From IMG/VR virus record IMGVR_UViG_2778261419_000003, positions 1-42,828 of that record: a stretch of DNA of 42,828 nucleotides. One strand, given 5' to 3'. Below are positions 3,339 to 42,828 of this stretch, in pieces. How positions within the stretch are numbered: the first letter of the stretch is position 1; every line of letters begins with the position of its first letter. Source of the DNA: a virus (taxonomy: Duplodnaviria; Heunggongvirae; Uroviricota; Caudoviricetes). The translations under genes were made by a program, and so were the position numbers. Under the pieces are notes generated by a model. That model was not told the origin of the DNA. It saw only the letters and a list, made by a program, of their open reading frames with translations, and did not search any database.

Positions 3339-6248
3339 TTATGCCTGAGTACGCAGCGCTTCAAGGCGGCGCAGGTCGAAGTCGTTCAGTTCGTCGGTGT
3401 AATCAGCGGTGATCGGCGCTGGCCATTCGCCAGTGTCAAAGCCGGTAGCGATAGCGCGCATCGCCTTGCGGTACTCGAGCATGCCCAGCTCTAGCAGTTC
3501 AGCGGATGCCTCGATGATGGCGATCCAGTGGTAGTTCTCGTCTTTGTTGACGAAAATCCAGAAGAACTGGTCAAGTGCCGCGGTCTCGCAATACATGGCG
3601 GCGCTCAGGTGATAGTCACGGTCGATGATTTCCCGGTGCAGTTTGGCGCGCAGACCTTCCTGCTTAATGTTCCACATGCTGATGGTTTTAAGGTCGGCAC
3701 CGATGCGTACCCCGTCCAAGTCGATCTCAAGGTCAGGACGCACGCGGACTTCAAGTCCGGTTTCGTCGTCAAAGCCAAAATAGCTCACCTCAACAGCGCG
3801 GCTCGGGTGCTGGAGTAGCATCCCGGCGGTTGGGTGCTGGAGCAGGGCTTTCTGAATGGCCAGTGCGGTGCACAGTTGCTGGCGGGTGACCAGAACTTTT
3901 CCTTGCGGATTCTCACGCCAGGCATCCAGCAATTCGTCGGCGAAGACGGCGTCCGGATTAACAGACTTCACGGCCTGTATCAGGTCTGATTTGGTACCGG
4001 ACACTTTCAGCGGTTGCGGCTTCTGCGCTTCCTGGGCCACCAGGTCAGGATTGATGATTGCCAGCTGCTCGAGTAACGCATCACGGCTACCGCTGGTTTT
4101 CACCTGTGCTGGCAGAGTGGCGTTGTATTCCTTGATGCAGGCTTTCATCGCCGCTGCGGTCTGCTTCTGGTCCGCTTCGATACGCTGATACTCTTCAGGA
4201 AGCGACATATAGCTCTGACCAGTTTCCTCGACTGAACCACCCAGCGGCACCTGTGCTGGCAGAGTGGCGTTGTATTCTTCGAGCAAGGCTTTGATCTCAT
4301 CTGCACTCAGCAGCGCTTGCAGACCTGCGTTGTAATCATCGATAAACGCGCGGATCGTTGCCGTCGTGGTGAATGCGCCTTCCGGAATTACCGGTTCAAC
4401 GCTGAATTCCTCATCGAGCTGCTCTGGCTGCAACGCCAGTGCATGAACCAGGTTACCCATGTCCAGCACCGGAGAACGCTCTTTGGTGATCGTTTTGGCA
4501 ACGTGGCGCGCGTTGAAGTACATCAGGCTAACGCGGGCATCTTTTACCTGCGTGCTGCTGATCCCGTTCGCTGCGTGATAAACCTCGTTCGGCAGACCTT
4601 CATAGCGACCTGGCTCGAAGTAAGCGGGGTAAACAACAGCTGGTTCGTCAGATTGGGCATCTGGCTCGGTTTGTGCCAAAACTGGTTCAGTCTGGTTTAC
4701 AGAATCGCTATTTTGGGCGACAGAATCCGTATTCTGGTTTACATCGGCTTGCTGGCTGGTATCTGATTCTTCACCAGTTTCCATACTGCTTTTGCCTGAC
4801 TGCACTTCAGTACCAGCCTGTTTTTCATCACTGACAGTTTCTTGAACCTGCACATTGCTGGTGGTCTCCGTAGCCTTTTTCGTGCCATGAGTAGCTGAGT
4901 TCTGCAGCAAAGCCGTAACGTCGAATATTCCGTTGCCGACATTTTTAACCAGTTCTTGTTCGACTTTCTGCGGTTGTGCCGCAGCTTCCTCTGCGCGGCG
5001 GCGTGCTCCTTCTTCACGCACGCGTTGCAGGTTCTCTTCGTGAGTGCAGAAGGATTTGCGCGGAGACTCCTTACTTTCAGGTTGGTGAATTTCCTGAGTT
5101 GCTACTTCAGCTTCATGCAACGGCAATAACTCAACCGCAGAGTTGAATTCAGCAGTCATGGTCTGGTTAACAAATTCCAGGTGAGCGACAGGGGTTAGAT
5201 GAATATTTTCCGGCGCGATACGTACCAGGTTAAAAATAGCCGTGCGGTTAACGCCAAGAGCGCCAGGCTGATTGCGCAGAATGCTGCTCCATGATTTCCA
5301 CGGTTCTTCTTTTTTGGTCACGATTTCTTTGGCGCGACGAAGAATGCTGCCTGGGATCTCGAAGTGGTTGAAGTCCATAGGCAGAAGGGCACAGGCAATC
5401 TCTAAATCGAGAGTGTCCAGGGTGTGGTGTGCGTCAGGTCCACGGTCAGTGACGTAACCGCCGTTGGCATTGGTTCCGGAATCAGTACGCTGAACACTAC
5501 TGATGTGATTACCGGCAGCCCATTCACGCGCCAGGATGCCACGGTCAATGTAATCAGTAGCCGCCCACATTCTGGTGAAACGGAGTACCAGCGCGAGTTC
5601 GTGACGCTTGTCCTGGCTGAACACTTTGCGAATGGCATCGGTGTAGCGCCACAGGTCTTTGGTGTCGTAACCCTTCACTTCCGGGCAGTTCTCAGCAGCT
5701 AACAGCAAGTTCTGGACGTAACTGTTATCAGTGTCCATCTCCAGCGCGCCGATAGCTTCGTACTCTTCGCGGGTTACGTGGTGGCGCAGTTCGTCGGCGG
5801 TGAACTGGGAAAGCAGTTGCTTACGAAACGGCATCTGCACTACCGGGTAGAGGGTTGAGTCGTCGTCGTGTTCGTCCAGCGTGATGCCAGCGGTTTCTGG
5901 CAGCGTTGACTCAGTAGTTATGTGACTATCAACGGTCTGAGCCGTTTTCTCGTCAGAGTTTTCAGCTGTGACTTTTGGCAGCCAGGTGCGGTCATCGTTC
6001 TGCAGTTCGTAGCGTTCGCACCAGGTGTAATCCACTGCGCCTTCTTCCGGCAGGTCGTCATATACCGGGAAATCGGTGCGGATTGGTTTGGCATAATCTT
6101 TACCGCGGCCAGTTTCTTCAATTCCGGCTTCTTCCAGTGCCACATCGAGTTGGAGATTGGCGCGCGCTACACTTTTCGCAGTGAACCAAATCACTGCATC
6201 TTTCTTGCCAGACTTCTGACTGGCTTTTATCAGATGGAAAAATTCCAT
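3339..6248 (-). CDS. recE: Exonuclease VIII (RecE-like)
   Basis: N-terminal region matches the E. coli RecE N-terminus as recalled (DLPEEGAVDYTWCERYELQNDDRTW); large acidic/Q-rich linker; conserved C-terminal nuclease domain; start ATG 6246-6248 with AAGAGGA SD chosen over the extended ORF start at 6353. Confidence 0.8.
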   Translation of the reverse strand: MEFFHLIKASQKSGKKDAVIWFTAKSVARANLQLDVALEEAGIEETGRGKDYAKPIRTDFPVYDDLPEEGAVDYTWCERYELQNDDRTWLPKVTAENSDEKTAQTVDSHITTESTLPETAGITLDEHDDDSTLYPVVQMPFRKQLLSQFTADELRHHVTREEYEAIGALEMDTDNSYVQNLLLAAENCPEVKGYDTKDLWRYTDAIRKVFSQDKRHELALVLRFTRMWAATDYIDRGILAREWAAGNHISSVQRTDSGTNANGGYVTDRGPDAHHTLDTLDLEIACALLPMDFNHFEIPGSILRRAKEIVTKKEEPWKSWSSILRNQPGALGVNRTAIFNLVRIAPENIHLTPVAHLEFVNQTMTAEFNSAVELLPLHEAEVATQEIHQPESKESPRKSFCTHEENLQRVREEGARRRAEEAAAQPQKVEQELVKNVGNGIFDVTALLQNSATHGTKKATETTSNVQVQETVSDEKQAGTEVQSGKSSMETGEESDTSQQADVNQNTDSVAQNSDSVNQTEPVLAQTEPDAQSDEPAVVYPAYFEPGRYEGLPNEVYHAANGISSTQVKDARVSLMYFNARHVAKTITKERSPVLDMGNLVHALALQPEQLDEEFSVEPVIPEGAFTTTATIRAFIDDYNAGLQALLSADEIKALLEEYNATLPAQVPLGGSVEETGQSYMSLPEEYQRIEADQKQTAAAMKACIKEYNATLPAQVKTSGSRDALLEQLAIINPDLVAQEAQKPQPLKVSGTKSDLIQAVKSVNPDAVFADELLDAWRENPQGKVLVTRQQLCTALAIQKALLQHPTAGMLLQHPSRAVEVSYFGFDDETGLEVRVRPDLEIDLDGVRIGADLKTISMWNIKQEGLRAKLHREIIDRDYHLSAAMYCETAALDQFFWIFVNKDENYHWIAIIEASAELLELGMLEYRKAMRAIATGFDTGEWPAPITADYTDELNDFDLRRLEALRTQA

Positions 6249-6386
6249 GTGAGATCCTCTTTTTTGAGTGTTAGAATCCCCGGGCCAGAGATAGCGCCCA
6301 TTGGATGTTTTTTGGTTTGGTATAAATTCCGGTGTAACTTTGGTCGGTGGCACCGGACGTGAATCCCGCCTTGCGCGGGTTTTACG

Positions 6387-34921: not shown

Positions 34922-37900
34922 ATGGGTGAAAAAATGCAGCTTCTTAAACAAGAAACCATCCTGCAGGGTGCCAAAGGGGGAGGTGGCAGTTCACATACTC
35001 CGGTTGAGCAGCCTGACGATCTGCTGTCGGTCGCAAAATTAAAAATGCTCATTGCCGTTTCTGAGGGGGAAATACAGGGCGACCTGACCGCTCAGAACAT
35101 TTTTCTCAACGATACGCCGCTGGCAAACGACAGCGGGGAATACAACTTCAGCGGCGTGAAATGGGAGTTCCGCAAGGGCACACAGGACCAGACCTATATT
35201 GCCGGGATGCCCCAGGTCGACAACGAGCTGGCCGTGGGCACAACTGTCACCACCACCGCGCCCTGGACGCGCCAGTTTACAAACCTTTCCCTGGATGCCA
35301 TCCGTATCAAGCTCAGCCTTCCGGTCCAGTATCTCTATAAAGATAATGGCGATATGGTGGGCACGGTCACCGAGTATGCGATCGATTTATCAACGGACGG
35401 CGGCGCCTGGAAAACGGTTGTAAACGGCAAGTTTGACGGAAAGACCACGACGGAATATCAGCGTGACCACCGTATCGATCTGCCAAAATCCACGTCCGGC
35501 TGGTCTGTCAGGGTCAGGCGTATTACGGCTGATGCCAGCGGATCAAATTCGAAACTGGTTAACGCCTTCAAGGTGTTTTCGTATGCGGAAGTCATCGACA
35601 GCAAGCTTCGTTATCCTTTAACAGCGCTCCTGTATGTCGAAGTGGACAGCAGCCAATTCAACGGCAGCGCGCCGAAAGTGACCTGTAAGATAAAAGGCAA
35701 GCTGATTAAGGTTCCGGATAATTACGATCCGAAAACCCGAACCTATTCTGGTTCATGGTCCGGCGGGTTCAAAATGGCATGGTCCAATAACCCTGCCTGG
35801 ATCTTTTACGATCTGGTTCTGGATGAAATTTACGGCATGGGCACGCGCGTGGATGCGTCCATGGTGGATAAGTGGGCGCTGTATTCAATCGCCCAGTACT
35901 GTGACGAAATGGTTTCCGACGGGGCCGGTGGCACCGAACCGCGTTTCACCTGCAACGTTTTCATTCAGAGCCAGGAGGACGCCTGGCAGGTACTTAACGA
36001 TCTCGCCGCGGTATTTCGTGGAATAACGTTCTGGGGCAACGATCAGATTTATGTCCAGGCAGACGTCCCGCAGGACGATGTTGACTGGGTTTATAACGTC
36101 TCAAACGTTATCGATGGGCTGTTTACTTATGCGGGCGGCTCATACAAGAATCGCTACAGCTCCTGCCTGGTGTCCTGGTCCGATCCGCAGAACCATTACA
36201 GCGATACCGTTGAGGGGGTTTACGATTCGGCGCTTGTAGAACGTTACGACGTCCGGCAGACGTCCCTGACCGCAATCGGCTGCACCTCGCAAAGTGAAGC
36301 GCACCGACGCGGTCGCTGGGTATTGCTCTCCAATGCCAAAGACGGGACCGTATCGTTTGGCGTGGGGCTGGACGGTTATATCCCTTTGCCCGCTGAAATT
36401 ATCGGTGTCGCCGATCCTTTCCGCTCTGGTAAGGAGAACGGGGGCCGTATAAGCGCGGCCAACGGCCGCCAAATTACCCTCGATCGAGAAATAGACTACG
36501 CGGCGAAAGACCGGCTGGTGGTTAACCTTCCCGACGGAAAAGCCCAGACGCGGACAATCAGCGCGGTGAGCGCCGATAAAAAAACGGTGACGGTGGCTAC
36601 GGCATTCAGTCAGGTTCCTGTGGCGGGCGCTGTTTGGGCGATAGACAGTGATAACCTCGCAATACAGTACTTCAGGGTCACCTCAATCGCGGCTAACGAC
36701 GACAGTACAGGCGGTTTCACTATTACGGCCGTTCAGCACGATCCAAACAAATATCGTTACATCGATGACGGCGTTCGGGTCGAGTCTCCCCCGATCACCG
36801 TCACGCCGATAAGCGTCCTGTCTGCTCCGAAGAATATCGTGGTGACTGAGAGCGATCATGTGTCTCAGGGGCTGACTGTAGCAAGCCTGGACGTGTCATG
36901 GGATAAGGTAGAGGGCGCAATCCGGTATGTTGCCCAGTGGCGTAAGGACAACGGGGACTGGATAAACGTTCCGGTTACCAGCGCGCAGGGTTTCTCGGTT
37001 CAGGGCATTTATTCGGGCAGCTATGACGTGCGCGTACGGGCGCTGAATGCGCAGGATACGTCGTCACCATGGGGATACGGTGAAACAACTTATCTCTCCG
37101 GTAAAACGGGAAAACCGGGTACTCCGCTCAACTTCCTGGCGACCGAAGATGTGGTCTGGCATATCGACCTGACCTGGAAATTTCCGGATGGCTCAGGCGA
37201 CACGGCCTATACAGAGATTCAGCGCGCCACAACTGCCGACTACGCCAATCCTGAACTGCTGGTCCTGGTGCCGTACCCGGCTGCAGATTATCAGCATGGC
37301 CCCATGCCTGCCGGCGTTCGCCAGTGGTACCGCGCGCGCCTGATTGACCGTATCGGTAACGCCGGGGACTGGACCGACTGGATCATGGGCACGTCCTCGA
37401 TAGATGTCAGCGAAATAACTAATGACATTCTGGAGGATATGAAAGAGTCGGAAACGTTCAAAGACCTGATCGAGAACGCGGTGGACAGCAACGAAAAAAT
37501 TGCTGGCATGGCTAACGATATCAAACAGGCCAACGACGAACTGGAGCAGCAAGCGAAAGATATCGCCAAAAACGCCCAGGATATCGGGAAGGTTCAGACC
37601 AGCGTTACAAACCTGTCGAGCACGGTCGGAGATGTGTCTTCTTCTCTGAGCAAGCTTGAGCAGACAGTGGCGACGGCTGATACCGCGCTGGGCCAGCGCA
37701 TCGATAACATCAGCGTGTCTGTGGACGGTATGACGGGAGGAGTGAAGAACTCTGCCATCGCGATTATTCAGGGCAACCTGGCGCAGGTGGCGGCGCGCAA
37801 AACGCTGTCTGCATCCGTCGCCGGTAACAGCGCGCAGCTGGACCGCATTGATGAGGTGATCGTCAACGAGAAGGAGGCAACGGCGCGTTCGCTGCTGAGT

Positions 37901-38509
37901 TTGCAGACTGACGTGAACGGCAACAAGGCATCTATCAACAGCCTGAACCAGACGTTCTCCGATTACCAGCAGGCCGCGGCCACGCAGATAAACGGGATCA
38001 CGGCGACCGTCAACGGACACACATCAGCCATCACAACCAACGCTCAGGCGATAGCCAACGTTAATGGCGACCTCAGCGCGATGTACAACATCAAGGTTGG
38101 CGTTTCCAGCAACGGTCAGTATTACGCCGCGGGGATGGGTATCGGCGTGGAGAATACGCCATCCGGCATGCAGTCGCAGGTTATCTTCCTGGCTGATCGC
38201 TTCGCCGTCACCACGGCAGCCGGAAATAGCGTGGCTTTGCCGTTTGTGATCCAGAATGGACAGACATTCATCCGGGCCAGTTTCATCCAGGACGGCACTA
38301 TCAGCAACGCAAAGATTGGTAATTTTATCCAGTCGAACAATTATGTTGCTGGTTCTGCTGGCTGGAAGCTTGATAAAGGGGGGACGTTTGAGAACTACGG
38401 TTCGACTGCTGGTGAGGGAGCCATGAAACTGACAAATCAGACGATCAGCGTCAAAGATGGCAGTAATGTTCTTAGGGTGCAGGTTGGCCGATTAACGGGA
38501 GTATTCTGA
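34922..38509 (+). CDS. J: Host specificity / central tail fibre protein J
   Basis: 1195 aa; extended similarity to lambda J (e.g. KWALYSIAQYCDEMVSDGAGGTEPRFTCNVF vs lambda KWALYVIGQYCDQSVPDGFGGTEPRITCNAY); C-terminal region divergent. Confidence 0.9.
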   Translation: MGEKMQLLKQETILQGAKGGGGSSHTPVEQPDDLLSVAKLKMLIAVSEGEIQGDLTAQNIFLNDTPLANDSGEYNFSGVKWEFRKGTQDQTYIAGMPQVDNELAVGTTVTTTAPWTRQFTNLSLDAIRIKLSLPVQYLYKDNGDMVGTVTEYAIDLSTDGGAWKTVVNGKFDGKTTTEYQRDHRIDLPKSTSGWSVRVRRITADASGSNSKLVNAFKVFSYAEVIDSKLRYPLTALLYVEVDSSQFNGSAPKVTCKIKGKLIKVPDNYDPKTRTYSGSWSGGFKMAWSNNPAWIFYDLVLDEIYGMGTRVDASMVDKWALYSIAQYCDEMVSDGAGGTEPRFTCNVFIQSQEDAWQVLNDLAAVFRGITFWGNDQIYVQADVPQDDVDWVYNVSNVIDGLFTYAGGSYKNRYSSCLVSWSDPQNHYSDTVEGVYDSALVERYDVRQTSLTAIGCTSQSEAHRRGRWVLLSNAKDGTVSFGVGLDGYIPLPAEIIGVADPFRSGKENGGRISAANGRQITLDREIDYAAKDRLVVNLPDGKAQTRTISAVSADKKTVTVATAFSQVPVAGAVWAIDSDNLAIQYFRVTSIAANDDSTGGFTITAVQHDPNKYRYIDDGVRVESPPITVTPISVLSAPKNIVVTESDHVSQGLTVASLDVSWDKVEGAIRYVAQWRKDNGDWINVPVTSAQGFSVQGIYSGSYDVRVRALNAQDTSSPWGYGETTYLSGKTGKPGTPLNFLATEDVVWHIDLTWKFPDGSGDTAYTEIQRATTADYANPELLVLVPYPAADYQHGPMPAGVRQWYRARLIDRIGNAGDWTDWIMGTSSIDVSEITNDILEDMKESETFKDLIENAVDSNEKIAGMANDIKQANDELEQQAKDIAKNAQDIGKVQTSVTNLSSTVGDVSSSLSKLEQTVATADTALGQRIDNISVSVDGMTGGVKNSAIAIIQGNLAQVAARKTLSASVAGNSAQLDRIDEVIVNEKEATARSLLSLQTDVNGNKASINSLNQTFSDYQQAAATQINGITATVNGHTSAITTNAQAIANVNGDLSAMYNIKVGVSSNGQYYAAGMGIGVENTPSGMQSQVIFLADRFAVTTAAGNSVALPFVIQNGQTFIRASFIQDGTISNAKIGNFIQSNNYVAGSAGWKLDKGGTFENYGSTAGEGAMKLTNQTISVKDGSNVLRVQVGRLTGVF

Positions 38510-39487: not shown

Positions 39488-39598
39488 TTGATAGTTTTTA
39501 GCGATCAATAACATAATATTGATCTATCCAATCAATTATACCCACCAGAATTGTATTGGTATCGTCTAAGATACTGAATTCCTCTGGATACTATCAAA

Positions 39599-39832
39599 AT
39601 GAGAAAACTGATTATCTGCATGGCAGGCGCTGTCATGCTTACAGGATGCGCTGGCGTAATTGAGAAACAGGAACCAGTTTGCAGCGGCACTGCAATCGTT
39701 GGCGGTCAGGAAACTACGGTTCAGATTTACGGTGTGCGTAAACAAAACAACCAGACGCAGTACCGGGCTGGATATCCTTTCAGCTGGCGCTGGGTAAGTG
39801 CGAATACATTTACCGAAACAACCTGCAAATAA
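39599..39832 (+). CDS. Small lipoprotein (possible Cor-like superinfection exclusion protein)
   Basis: 77 aa; signal peptide with lipobox LTGC; between tail genes and side tail fibre; followed by a terminator. Confidence 0.45.
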   Translation: MRKLIICMAGAVMLTGCAGVIEKQEPVCSGTAIVGGQETTVQIYGVRKQNNQTQYRAGYPFSWRWVSANTFTETTCK

Positions 39833-39853
39833 CCCACTACGCTTAAACATAAA

Positions 39854-39876
39854 CCTCGCTCCGGCGGGGTTTTTTT
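39854..39876 (+). terminator. Intrinsic terminator after lipoprotein gene
   Basis: CCTCGC-tccg-GCGGGG hairpin followed by T7. Confidence 0.45.
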
Positions 39877-39892
39877 ATTGCCTGGAGAAAAT

Positions 39893-40825
39893 ATGCTTTA
39901 TAACACCGGCACCATCGCCATTAATGGAAATACCGCCACCGGGACGGGCACAAACTGGACAGCTCCCGCCAGCCAGGTCCGCGCTGGCCAGACGATTATC
40001 GTGATGTCTAACCCGGTGCAGCTGTTTCAGATTTCATCCGTGAACAGCGCCACGTCAATGACGGTTACGCCAGCAGTTTCCCCGGCGCTGAGCGGCCAGA
40101 AGTATGGAATCCTTGTGTCGGACAATATCTCAGTCGACGGCCTGGCGCAGGCCATGTCACAGCTCATCAAAGAGTACGACGAGAATATTGGCGCGTGGGA
40201 GACGTTCGCCACCACCTCAGCAAACCAAAGCATCACAGTTACCATCAACGGCACCGCCGTAACCATCCCAGGCATCGGTAAACTTGCGCAGAAAGGGAGC
40301 AATGGTGCGCTTGCAATCGCTGACGGCGGGACCGGGGCAACGAATGCCGCAGACGCTCGCACAAAACTTGGTTTGGGAGAAGGTGCTCCAGCTATTGGCG
40401 TTCCGTTCTTCTGGCCGTCCGCTGCAATGCCAAATACTGTAATCGACAGCTGGTCCAGTATGGTGTTTTTGAAGTTCAACGGGGCGAAATTTTCTGCCAC
40501 TGATTACCCTGTGCTGGCGAAAGTGTTTCCGGCGCTGGTATTACCTGAAGCCCGCGGTGATTTCATTCGTATCTGGGATGACGGGCGAGGTGCAGATGGT
40601 GGTCGCGAATTATTAAGCTGGCAGGAAGCTACAAACTTTTCTCAGTTTGCCGGGAATATAGGCGGAGGTGCGGGACACGCAATTAACTTTCATGATGGAA
40701 TCGCCGGAAATCAGCCAGGATTTTCACGATTTAATCTCACCAGTAACTCTGTGGGTGATGGTGTGAATTTTGTTGCTGTCAGACCGCGAAATATTGCATT
40801 TAACTTTCTGGTGAGGGCTAAATAA
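39893..40825 (+). CDS. stf: Side tail fibre protein (constant N-terminal part fused to variable C-terminus Sv)
   Basis: ATG 39893 with GGAGAAA SD; inversion crossover site lies inside the gene at codons for KLGLGE (40364-40381). Confidence 0.7.
   Translation: MLYNTGTIAINGNTATGTGTNWTAPASQVRAGQTIIVMSNPVQLFQISSVNSATSMTVTPAVSPALSGQKYGILVSDNISVDGLAQAMSQLIKEYDENIGAWETFATTSANQSITVTINGTAVTIPGIGKLAQKGSNGALAIADGGTGATNAADARTKLGLGEGAPAIGVPFFWPSAAMPNTVIDSWSSMVFLKFNGAKFSATDYPVLAKVFPALVLPEARGDFIRIWDDGRGADGGRELLSWQEATNFSQFAGNIGGGAGHAINFHDGIAGNQPGFSRFNLTSNSVGDGVNFVAVRPRNIAFNFLVRAK
40357..40382. promoter_or_regulatory. Inversion crossover site 1 (hix/gix-like)
   Basis: Reverse complement reads TTCTCCCAAACC-AA-GTTTTGTGCGA; inner half-site and core identical to site 2. 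Confidence 0.6.
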
Positions 40826-41418
40826 TGAAACCTGTTTTTGATGAAAATGGGCTGGCCACAGTGCCGGGCGATATGCGTTGTTTTTATTATGATGCTGAAA
40901 CATCTGAGTATACGGGCTGGTCTGATGAATATATTAATACTGGCGTAAGTATGCCCGCCTGTTCCACTGGTATTGACCCGGGCGAAAACATTCCGGGAAA
41001 AGTGGCAGTATTTACAGGTAAGGGATGGAGCCATGAAGAAGACCATCGCAATGAGACTGTTTACTCAATCGAAAATGGTGCTGCTGTTACAGTGGATTAT
41101 ATCGGTGCCATCAAAAACGGTTATGTCACGCTTTCACCGTTAACGCCATATGATAAATGGGATGGTGAGAAATGGGTGACAGACACTGAGGCACAACACA
41201 GTGCCGCAGTAGACGCGGCAGAAGCACAGCGCCAGTCACTGATTGATGCAGCAATGGCTTCCATTAGTCTGATTCAGCTGAAATTACAGGCCGGGCGGAA
41301 GCTGACGCAGGCAGAAACCACCCGACTTAACGCTGTGCTGGATTACATTGACGCGGTGGCGGCAACAGATACCAGCACCGCGCCGGATGTCATCTGGCCT
41401 GAACTGCCGGAGGCGTAG
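40825..41418 (+). CDS. tfa: Tail fibre assembly protein
   Basis: 197 aa; start overlaps stf stop; C-terminus LDYIDAVAATDTSTAPDVIWPELP typical of Tfa. Confidence 0.75.
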   Translation: MKPVFDENGLATVPGDMRCFYYDAETSEYTGWSDEYINTGVSMPACSTGIDPGENIPGKVAVFTGKGWSHEEDHRNETVYSIENGAAVTVDYIGAIKNGYVTLSPLTPYDKWDGEKWVTDTEAQHSAAVDAAEAQRQSLIDAAMASISLIQLKLQAGRKLTQAETTRLNAVLDYIDAVAATDTSTAPDVIWPELPEA

Positions 41419-41902
41419 GCCATTCAATATCTGGAGCACCGGAAGTATCGACCAGTTCCAGTGCGTCCAGATAATCCAGCCATAAATTATATTGCGCCAG
41501 TTCCTCACCTTTCAGACGACCAATAGCCGCCTTTCCTGGCCACTGCTTACTGTTAATATATTCATTAACTCTATTTATGAGTGCCTGTTTTTTTCGTTCC
41601 GCTTCTGACAGTTGTTCTTCATGAGTTAGCGGCGGTACGTCATCCCATGCAGGATAGCCATCATCACCCGCAACTCTCACTTTCCCTGGAGGTGGGGACA
41701 GGTACTTAATAAATATATCCTCATCAACTTCAACTCCATTATGAGGCCATAACCCAGACTCCTTATACTGACTTTCCAGAGTAAATGGGTAAAACATATT
41801 AGTTTTAGCATCGTAAAGATATTTACTCATTTTATCTTCCTGTAGCAAACCAGCGGCAACCAGCGACAGTTGGAACATTGAAGGATGGATTTCCTTTATC
41901 AA
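41390..41902 (-). CDS. Alternative tail fibre assembly protein (Tfa')
   Basis: 170 aa, convergent with tfa; C-terminus LDYLDALELVDTSGAPDIEWPTPP paralogous to the plus-strand Tfa. Confidence 0.7.
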   Translation of the reverse strand: MIKEIHPSMFQLSLVAAGLLQEDKMSKYLYDAKTNMFYPFTLESQYKESGLWPHNGVEVDEDIFIKYLSPPPGKVRVAGDDGYPAWDDVPPLTHEEQLSEAERKKQALINRVNEYINSKQWPGKAAIGRLKGEELAQYNLWLDYLDALELVDTSGAPDIEWPTPPAVQAR

Positions 41903-42208
41903 GAGATCCCAGGTTCTCTGCTATGACATTTGAGTTAGTCAATTTATAGAATTGCCATACTGACATTTTCCCTGCCACAGGAGCCTGGTCATGTTCATTA
42001 ATAGAAATGACGGCTGTCGGAAATGGGATAGGAAAATTAATCAAAACTTCATTTGTTGTGGCCTCAGTTAGCCCCCATTGTTCAATATAACCATCCGGGC
42101 TTCGCCTCCATCCCGTCGTTGTATCTCCCCCACACTCCCACGCTGACATATCAGGAATTTGGTTTTGCCCGTTACCCACATCCCGTTTTGCCGCTTCTCC
42201 CAAACCAA
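41832..42208 (-). CDS. Alternative tail fibre variable C-terminal segment (Sv'), expressed only after inversion
   Basis: Minus-strand ORF lacking its own constant part; begins at the crossover with GLGE codons identical to the stf junction. Confidence 0.6.
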
Positions 42209-42220
42209 CCTTTTTTATAA
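42195..42220. promoter_or_regulatory. Inversion crossover site 2 (hix/gix-like)
   Basis: TTCTCCCAAACC-AA-CCTTTTTTATAA; resembles Hin hixL TTCTTGAAAACCAAGGTTTTTGATAA. Confidence 0.65.
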
Positions 42221-42279
42221 CCATCAAAAATCTGGTGATGCTTCGCCGTTTCTCCTGTTTTCATAACAGGAGAAATCCC

Positions 42280-42828
42280 ATGATTTACGGTTATGCCCGA
42301 GTATCAACAAACCACCAGGACACTGAATTGCAACTAACGGCGCTCAAGTCAGCGGGTTGTGAGAAAATTTTTGAAGAGCATGCCAGCGGGAGGAAATCGA
42401 ATCGGCCGGTTCTAAAACGGCTGATCGCCACTATGCAGCCGGGGGATGAACTGGTGGTCTGGAAGCTGGACAGGATAGGCCGCAACGTTCTGCATGCGCT
42501 GTTGATGTTCCAGCAGTTACAGGAAAAGGGTATCAACTTCCGCAGTATTACCGATGGCGTGGATCTCAAAACAGCCAGCGGCCGCTATAACTTTCGTAAC
42601 ATCCTTTCCGCAGCACAATATGAATCTGATCTTAATAGCGAACGTACCTTAGCAGGGCTGGCCGTAGCCAGGGCAAAAGGGCGAGTTGGTGGTCGCAGGC
42701 CTAAGTTCACGGATGAGCAATGGCGGGAAATGGGGGAGCGGATGGCAACCGGTGAATCACGACAAAGCGTATCAAAAACGTATGGAGTAGGGCTCTCAAC
42801 TCTGTATAAAAAGTTTCCAGCTAGCTGA
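42280..42828 (+). CDS. pin: Serine DNA invertase (Hin/Gin/Pin family)
   Basis: MIYGYARVSTNHQD... N-terminal resolvase catalytic domain with active-site Ser; C-terminal HTH; adjacent to the invertible segment. Confidence 0.85.
   Translation: MIYGYARVSTNHQDTELQLTALKSAGCEKIFEEHASGRKSNRPVLKRLIATMQPGDELVVWKLDRIGRNVLHALLMFQQLQEKGINFRSITDGVDLKTASGRYNFRNILSAAQYESDLNSERTLAGLAVARAKGRVGGRRPKFTDEQWREMGERMATGESRQSVSKTYGVGLSTLYKKFPAS

Follow-up and report, generated by a model that had tools for sequence, protein, structure and literature searches.

Does the right end of the prophage analyzed here carry a switch by which the phage can still exchange one side tail fibre for another, and which enzyme would turn it? 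Programmed inversion of tail-fibre genes is textbook biology. Such inversions were found to be enriched in genome-wide surveys (PMC9881135). The stretch in question, referred to here as the window, is the IMG/VR virus record IMGVR_UViG_2778261419_000003 at its full length of 42,828 nucleotides, a lambdoid E. coli prophage similar to phi80, HK225 and mEp237 that extends from int to the gene of a small serine DNA invertase. An earlier note, made from the letters of this DNA, had described its right end as an apparently intact invertible tail-fibre switch of the Hin/Gin/Pin type, working like the Mu G, P1 C and e14 P segments. The type of switch was recognized correctly, and all structural elements of such a system are present and intact in the window; the invertase itself is not a close orthologue of Hin, Gin or Pin and belongs to the type represented by PinL of phi80. 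Taken together, the results show that the switch is real and active, well preserved and of a long-known kind. We estimate the probability that it is an active two-state switch of the side tail fibre of the Mu G/e14 P type, flipped by the adjacent PinL-type invertase, at about 0.88. The features concerned are the following.

39893-40825, plus strand: stf in its current state, 310 amino acids (aa), exact protein WP_097507266.1
39893-40367, plus strand: Sc, the constant N-terminal part of Stf
40356-40381: left recombination site, inside stf, CTCGCACAAAAC-TT-GGTTTGGGAGAA, core 40368-40369
40368-42208: invertible segment, 1,841 bp from core to core, with two convergent cassettes, Sv and tfa on the plus strand, Sv' and tfa' on the minus strand
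40370-40825, plus strand: Sv, the variable C-terminus now joined to Sc
40825-41418, plus strand: tfa, tail-fibre assembly chaperone paired with Sv, 197 aa, PF02413 (E-value 7e-27)
41390-41830, minus strand: tfa', alternative chaperone paired with Sv', 146 aa, PF02413 (E-value 6e-34)
41832-42206, minus strand: Sv', the silent alternative C-terminus, to be expressed only once inverted, PF21882 Gp53-like_C (E-value 3e-12)
42195-42220: right recombination site, TTCTCCCAAACC-AA-CCTTTTTTATAA, core 42207-42208
42248-42276, plus strand: palindrome upstream of the invertase ATG, a hairpin with a perfect 12-bp stem, GTTTCTCCTGTT-TTCAT-AACAGGAGAAAT
42280-42828, plus strand: PinL-type small serine DNA invertase, 182 aa, complete, with Resolvase (PF00239) and HTH_7 (PF02796) domains

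Only two copies of the 14-nt half-site with its core, TTCTCCCAAACCAA, are found in the 42.8-kb window, one at 40368-40381 (minus strand) and the other, inverted relative to it, at 42195-42208 (plus strand), while shuffled sequences gave a mean of 0.26 matches even with two mismatches allowed. The pair is also recovered as an inverted repeat by a repeat search of the window, and all 14 of these 14 nucleotides, AA core included, are common to the two 26-bp sites. This confirms the two inverted hix/gix-like sites with an identical inner half-site and AA core that had been noticed before; the right site had been placed correctly at 42195-42220, and the left one, given as 40357-40382, one base too far to the right. 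As for their family, the inner half-site and core (TTCTCCCAAACC followed by AA) are identical to those of the sites flanking the e14 P segment in MG1655 and resemble the real hixL (TTCTTGAAAACC followed by AA) and gix. The distance from the right core to the invertase ATG is 72.5 bp, as compared to 74.5 bp in Salmonella hin and 67 bp in Mu gin. An exact scan for the 26-bp right site in contigs representing one genome per species returned no match. Additionally, two hix-like half-sites on the minus strand (TTATGCCAAACCAA and TTATACCAAACCAA; 6083-6096 and 6312-6325) are spaced 229 bp apart, at and just upstream of the start of a RecE-like gene; they were rejected as true sites since a second half-site is present at neither, and are probably chance occurrences.

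The sequence of stf, which is annotated as 'tail fiber protein' in E. coli 027_SK3, reads ...ARTKLGLGEGAP at the junction, and the minus-strand open reading frame that holds Sv' (41832-42227), which has no obvious ribosome-binding site, opens with MMVIKKVGLGEAAK. In-silico inversion of 40368-42208 creates an uninterrupted open reading frame of 283 aa (...ARTKLGLGEAAKRD...FATGR) with a gp53-like C-terminal domain, in which ...ARTK-LGLGE of Stf is fused to ...AAKRDVGNGQ... of Sv', and tfa' begins one base after it. The in-frame fusion of Sc with Sv', previously proposed from the mirrored KKVGLGE and KLGLGE codons, is borne out by this reading frame and by an exact protein on record, and the same inversion brings Tfa' into the expressed orientation, as had likewise been proposed.

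Following this, we propose that the small serine recombinase encoded directly to the right would pair the two inverted 26-bp sites and cut at their AA/TT cores, whereupon strand rotation would invert the 1,841 bp between them. With the left site positioned in stf at the K-L-G-L-G-E codons, Sc (about 160 aa, presumably the part that anchors the fibre on the tail) is joined in frame to one or the other C-terminus. The product is Sc-Sv, of 310 aa, followed by the chaperone Tfa, in the current state, and Sc-Sv', of 283 aa and with a gp53-like receptor-binding end, followed by Tfa', in the flipped state. Phages from the two states should recognise different receptors.

The occurrence of both states in nature was analyzed by retrieving from public data the contigs that encode the exact Tfa' protein (115 blocks of the public collection contain it) and comparing them with the window. 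Both the exact 283-aa protein of the inverted state (P0121, on a 104-kb Logan contig) and the exact 310-aa protein of the forward state (WP_097507266.1) are present in a collection of 15 billion proteins. At the DNA level, an E. coli prophage adjoining yciI (GCA_033287405.1, locus L092) agrees with the window as inverted in silico at every base of 39494-42828 (3,335 bp, 0 mismatches), the orientation of the 1,841-bp segment being the sole difference from the window, and locus L096 (GCA_029477945.1) matches the window as it stands at 100% over the same interval. The segment is 100.000% identical (1841/1841) and inverted in both L092 and L093, 100% identical in the same orientation in L096, and forward at 99.9% identity in L098. 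Moreover, both junctions are identical in L092 and L096, including an unusual left outer half-site. Since the identical module is on record in both orientations, the switch flips at the predicted crossover, and the possibility that only one orientation would ever be seen does not hold for public genomes. Cassette exchange with an identity break exactly at the crossovers was considered for L092 and L093 and rejected, as identity extends to 39494 and 39947; such a break is found only on the right side of the 027_SK3-type locus. In that type (L002 and L094) the window's segment occurs at 99.9% identity in a prophage with no invertase, and homology to the window (42208-42220 compared) ends exactly at the right crossover core, where the outer half-site is CGTTTACGAAAA, of the e14/P2 type. 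This suggests acquisition of the cassette pair through recombination at the site itself.

A wider survey covered 88 PinL-type loci, 80 of them from IMG/VR and the others annotated loci of E. coli and of phages. In about 60 of the 88 a site begins 85 bp upstream of the ATG of the invertase, and about 50 of these have an inverted partner site 1.2-2.4 kb away. In 37 extracted segments, shared cassette halves were found in either position about equally (71 same-orientation vs 64 inverted high-scoring segment pairs, part of the inverted pairs in mid-segment being due to tfa/tfa' homology and not to inversion). Comparison of loci L029 and L033 showed the whole segment inverted at 94.5% identity, and E. 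coli EC09 and 21AR0133 carry the two states beside the same invertase protein. A megablast search of complete E. coli genomes with the inverted 3.3-kb region detected no match of at least 80% coverage, only the partial one in 21AR0133, so that this collection lacks the exact combination, and a look-up of the 224-aa neighbour protein returned only prophages with non-invertible fibres.

The invertase starts at ATG 42280 and not at GTG 42235. It aligns with residues 1-181 of Mu Gin (E-value 1e-56) with Ser9 in place, and the catalytic residues Y6, R8, S10, R43 and R69 (Hin numbering) are conserved, so that the expectation of a full-length serine invertase with its N-terminal catalytic motif is supported and the catalytic residues are intact. 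Its identity amounts to 51% with Gin, 54.9% with PinE, 55% with the P2-like invertase and 46% with Hin; by contrast, it is 100% identical to the mEp237 invertase and to WP_000639140.1 and differs from that of HK225 by one substitution. Compared with phi80 pinL, 18 synonymous, 0 missense and one nonsense (codon 173) codon changes were found, a pattern that points to purifying selection on the protein in the past. The nonsense codon of phi80 pinL (locus L003, 4252-4800) removes the recognition helix. Identical modules adjoin yciI in L092, L096, EC09 and 21AR0133.

The 3' arm of the hairpin upstream of the gene contains the Shine-Dalgarno sequence of the invertase (AGGAG), and the RNA fold was computed at -28 kcal/mol (z = -4.67). 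The hairpin is kept in nearly all PinL-type loci, also where the flanks differ, and in phi80 it is annotated only as 'IR3'. It may throttle translation of the invertase or act as an operator. The PinL clade, as seen in the IMG/VR loci L012-L091, is mosaic, its central part including helix E (...GRYNFRNILSAAQYESDLNSERT...) being invariant, which results in part from the fact that these loci were found by exact peptide words. Identical PinL with the right site is furthermore found beside yciI in ES8 and ES7 (L008 and L009) and in L099, at the end of prophages of the myovirus type (baseplate J/gp47, sheath initiator) that each possess their own four-gene invertible segment. Thus, the switch-invertase module or the att-proximal end is common to unrelated tail types. 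ES7 and ES8, E. coli from the same source, were considered as one prophage in two orientations; this was rejected because they hold different myovirus prophages with the same invertase.

How this invertase is controlled was approached through the residues and DNA sites known from Hin. The residues of Hin that contact Fis, Gln151, Arg154 and Leu155 in helix 1 of the DNA-binding domain, were described as 'uniquely conserved among DNA invertases' and are required by wild-type Hin (PMC3798978). The corresponding triad is E/E/R in the window invertase (E150, E153 and R154 in its own numbering), as against Q/R/L in Hin, Gin, PinE and the P2-like invertase; QxxRL or ExxRL occurs in some other members of the PinL clade. 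Basic residues 47, 48 and 51 of helix B touch the enhancer DNA (PMC3798978), and of these K47 and R48 are present in the window invertase, but position 51, which is K or R in Hin, Gin, PinE and the P2-like invertase, is Ala. In helix E, Phe105 and Met109 act as lock residues of Hin and Phe106 is essential (PMC4513852); in the window invertase Phe106 is retained, and Asn (N104 in its own numbering) and Ile occupy Hin positions 105 and 109. The Hin variant F105N shows Fis-independent inversion in vivo and Fis-independent cleavage, with ligation impaired (PMC4513852).

The enhancer of Fis-dependent invertases lies in the 5' part of the invertase gene, about 100 bp from the recombination site, and has two Fis sites with a spacing of 48 bp. 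The DNA sites were scored only at homologous positions, verified in the real hin sequence, where two Fis-like 15-mers (TGTCAACAATTGACC and GTGCAAATTGTGACC), 48 bp apart and centred at +33 and +81, enclose the ATTTA and TAATG tracts described by McLean et al. (PMC3798978). Scored against GNNYRNNWNNYRNNC at +30 and +78, site I reaches 6/7 and site II 7/7 in hin, gin, pinE and the P2-like gene, whereas the homologous sites of the window invertase gene reach 5/7 and 5/7 by this purely consensus-based and therefore weak test; in its site II (CAGCGGGTTGTGAGA) both G(-7) and C(+7) are gone. The Fis enhancer that the earlier note had suggested looking for in the 5' part of the gene is hence not supported. 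A blind scan with a degenerate Fis consensus was dropped as unspecific, as it reported sites at +132 and +185 in all invertase genes compared. Within the PinL clade, site II shows free variation at its synonymous positions, whereas perfect sites are retained in mEpX1-type chimeras, whose N-terminus is canonical. Given the E/E/R triad, the non-basic residue 51 of helix B, the Asn at Hin position 105 and the lost G/C anchors and free synonymous variation of site II, PinL-type invertases might tentatively be regarded as a natural tail-fibre invertase clade freed from canonical Fis/enhancer control, a reading that we consider possible but on balance rather unlikely, and one limited by the weak consensus test, by the canonical patch in the DNA-binding domain of some clade members and by the chance that an enhancer lies elsewhere. 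If it were true, inversion would be enhancer-independent or otherwise controlled, for instance by an enzyme kept scarce through the hairpin that sequesters its Shine-Dalgarno sequence.

The window comes close to several long-described switches, with differences in each case. The e14 P segment (1797 bp) was shown to be invertible by experiment (PMC12529663). It shares with the window the half-site and core, the order stf-tfa/tfa'-stf' followed by the invertase, and a length of about 1.8 kb vs 1,841 bp; however, e14 is a defective element as opposed to the apparently complete lambdoid prophage here, the outer half-sites differ, and PinE has a different Fis-contact triad and a different N-terminal part of helix E. 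The G segment of Mu likewise combines a constant Sc with alternative Sv/U and Sv'/U' cassettes and an invertase just outside, its ATG about 70 bp from the site, while its gix half-sites (TTCCTGTAAACC and TTATCCAAAACC) flank a GA core. Mu is a myovirus and its G segment comprises 3 kb. Salmonella Hin/hix resembles the window in its small serine invertase, in its sites of 26 bp, in which AA forms the 2-bp core, and in the distance of about 74 bp from a site to the invertase ATG downstream, but Hin flips a promoter instead of coding cassettes and its gene has two good Fis sites.

Closest in the invertase are phi80 pinL, whose protein is the same as that of the window up to the stop at codon 173, HK225 and mEp237, all of which share with the window the invertase, the right site, the upstream palindrome and the position at the prophage right end beside attP/yciI. 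In contrast to the whole switch of the window, their segment is lost, decayed or replaced (dinI/msgA insertions, pseudogene fragments), and an inverted left site was not detected in phi80 (L003), HK225 (L001) or mEp237 (L005), so that these are orphan invertases with a lone right site. Closest in the cassettes are the H-gene segments of P2-like E. coli prophages, which contain the same Sv/tfa-tfa'/Sv' pair (97.6% identity at the nucleotide level), an identical Tfa' and the same inner half-site, and which occur in both orientations in different genomes. They differ from the window in the H-type constant part of a myovirus and in a canonical Gin/Pin-like invertase (188-197 aa), in which the Q/R/L triad is intact and whose gene has good Fis sites.

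Against an active switch turned by PinL several points have to be weighed. With the Fis-contact residues absent and Fis site II degraded, canonical Fis activation of PinL is doubtful. In the left outer half-site, ...CAAAAC precedes the TT core, as compared to ...CAAACC in relatives, and this A at the third position from the core is absent from 41 other left sites, which makes it unique among the 42 tabulated. The evidence for both orientations, furthermore, compares genomes and not cells within one culture, and genomes showing the two orientations may owe them to another invertase of the Din family. This last point leads to the first alternative, according to which the segment is flipped in trans by other resident invertases of that family, with PinL inactive or otherwise employed. 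Candidates are PinE of e14, PinQ/PinR and the invertases of P2-like prophages, all of which would recognise the TTCTCCCAAACC half-site, and the e14 P segment was indeed inverted in trans by PinQ (PMC12529663). In accordance with this, the same cassette with the identical half-site adjoins canonical invertases of 188 aa and 197 aa in P2-like prophages in both orientations, the segment persists at 99.9% identity in the invertase-less prophages of the 027_SK3 type, and the triad that contacts Fis is missing from PinL. However, the absence of missense changes against phi80, the fixed 85-bp offset of the site with an inverted partner in most of the surveyed loci that have it, and the retention of all catalytic residues together with Phe106 speak for PinL as the working enzyme, and we regard flipping in trans as improbable.

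The second alternative, a frozen switch in which the layout is intact and this copy no longer inverts, owing to the variant base of the left site or to silencing of the invertase by the strong hairpin over its ribosome-binding site, could draw on the rarity of that base and on the orphan invertases with decayed segments in phi80, HK225 and mEp237, but is very unlikely given that the identical module is on record in both states: the variant left site accompanies the segment both in L092 and L093, where it is 100% identical and inverted, and in L096 and L098, where it is forward, from which it follows that this site has recombined and is competent, and the hairpin is also retained at loci with cassettes that occur in both positions. 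The active two-state switch with PinL as the probable enzyme is therefore preferred.

Regarding the setting, the nearest phage relatives of the right-end region are mEp237, phi80 and HK225, and the lambdoid backbone of the prophage is apparently complete, with genes for RecT, a RecE-like exonuclease, a repressor-like helix-turn-helix protein, O, Q and head and tail proteins in addition to the following.

1-1194: Int
34922-38509: J
39599-39832: cor, followed by a terminator-like hairpin

The RecE-like protein (3339-6353, minus strand; 1004 aa), whose gene adjoins that of RecT, consists of an N-terminal Exonuclease VIII domain and a C-terminal PDDEXK-like DUF3799 domain. The first base of the window is that of the integrase start codon and the last three (42826-42828) form the stop codon of the invertase; many IMG/VR prophage predictions of the same family stop 3 bp past the last matched invertase codon. 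The window thus looks like a gene-bounded prophage call with attL and attR lying outside.

For annotation, these results mean that two alternative side tail fibres are encoded by the prophage, to which two host-range states should be assigned; in the output of gene callers the silent Sv' is listed as a separate 'gp53-like' protein, and the fusion is missed. Moreover, the 1.84-kb cassette pair is common to lambdoid siphovirus and P2-like myovirus prophages (97-100% identity), which represents modular exchange of receptor-binding parts across tail types. The only point that goes beyond the routine is that the invertase does not have the hallmarks of activation by Fis and the enhancer, and yet the switch flips. 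If PinL is indeed independent of Fis, PinL and its sites could be used for engineering as a simple pair of recombinase and site with no host factor needed, and the invertase would correspond in nature to the 'hyperactive' mutants of Hin and Gin obtained in the laboratory.

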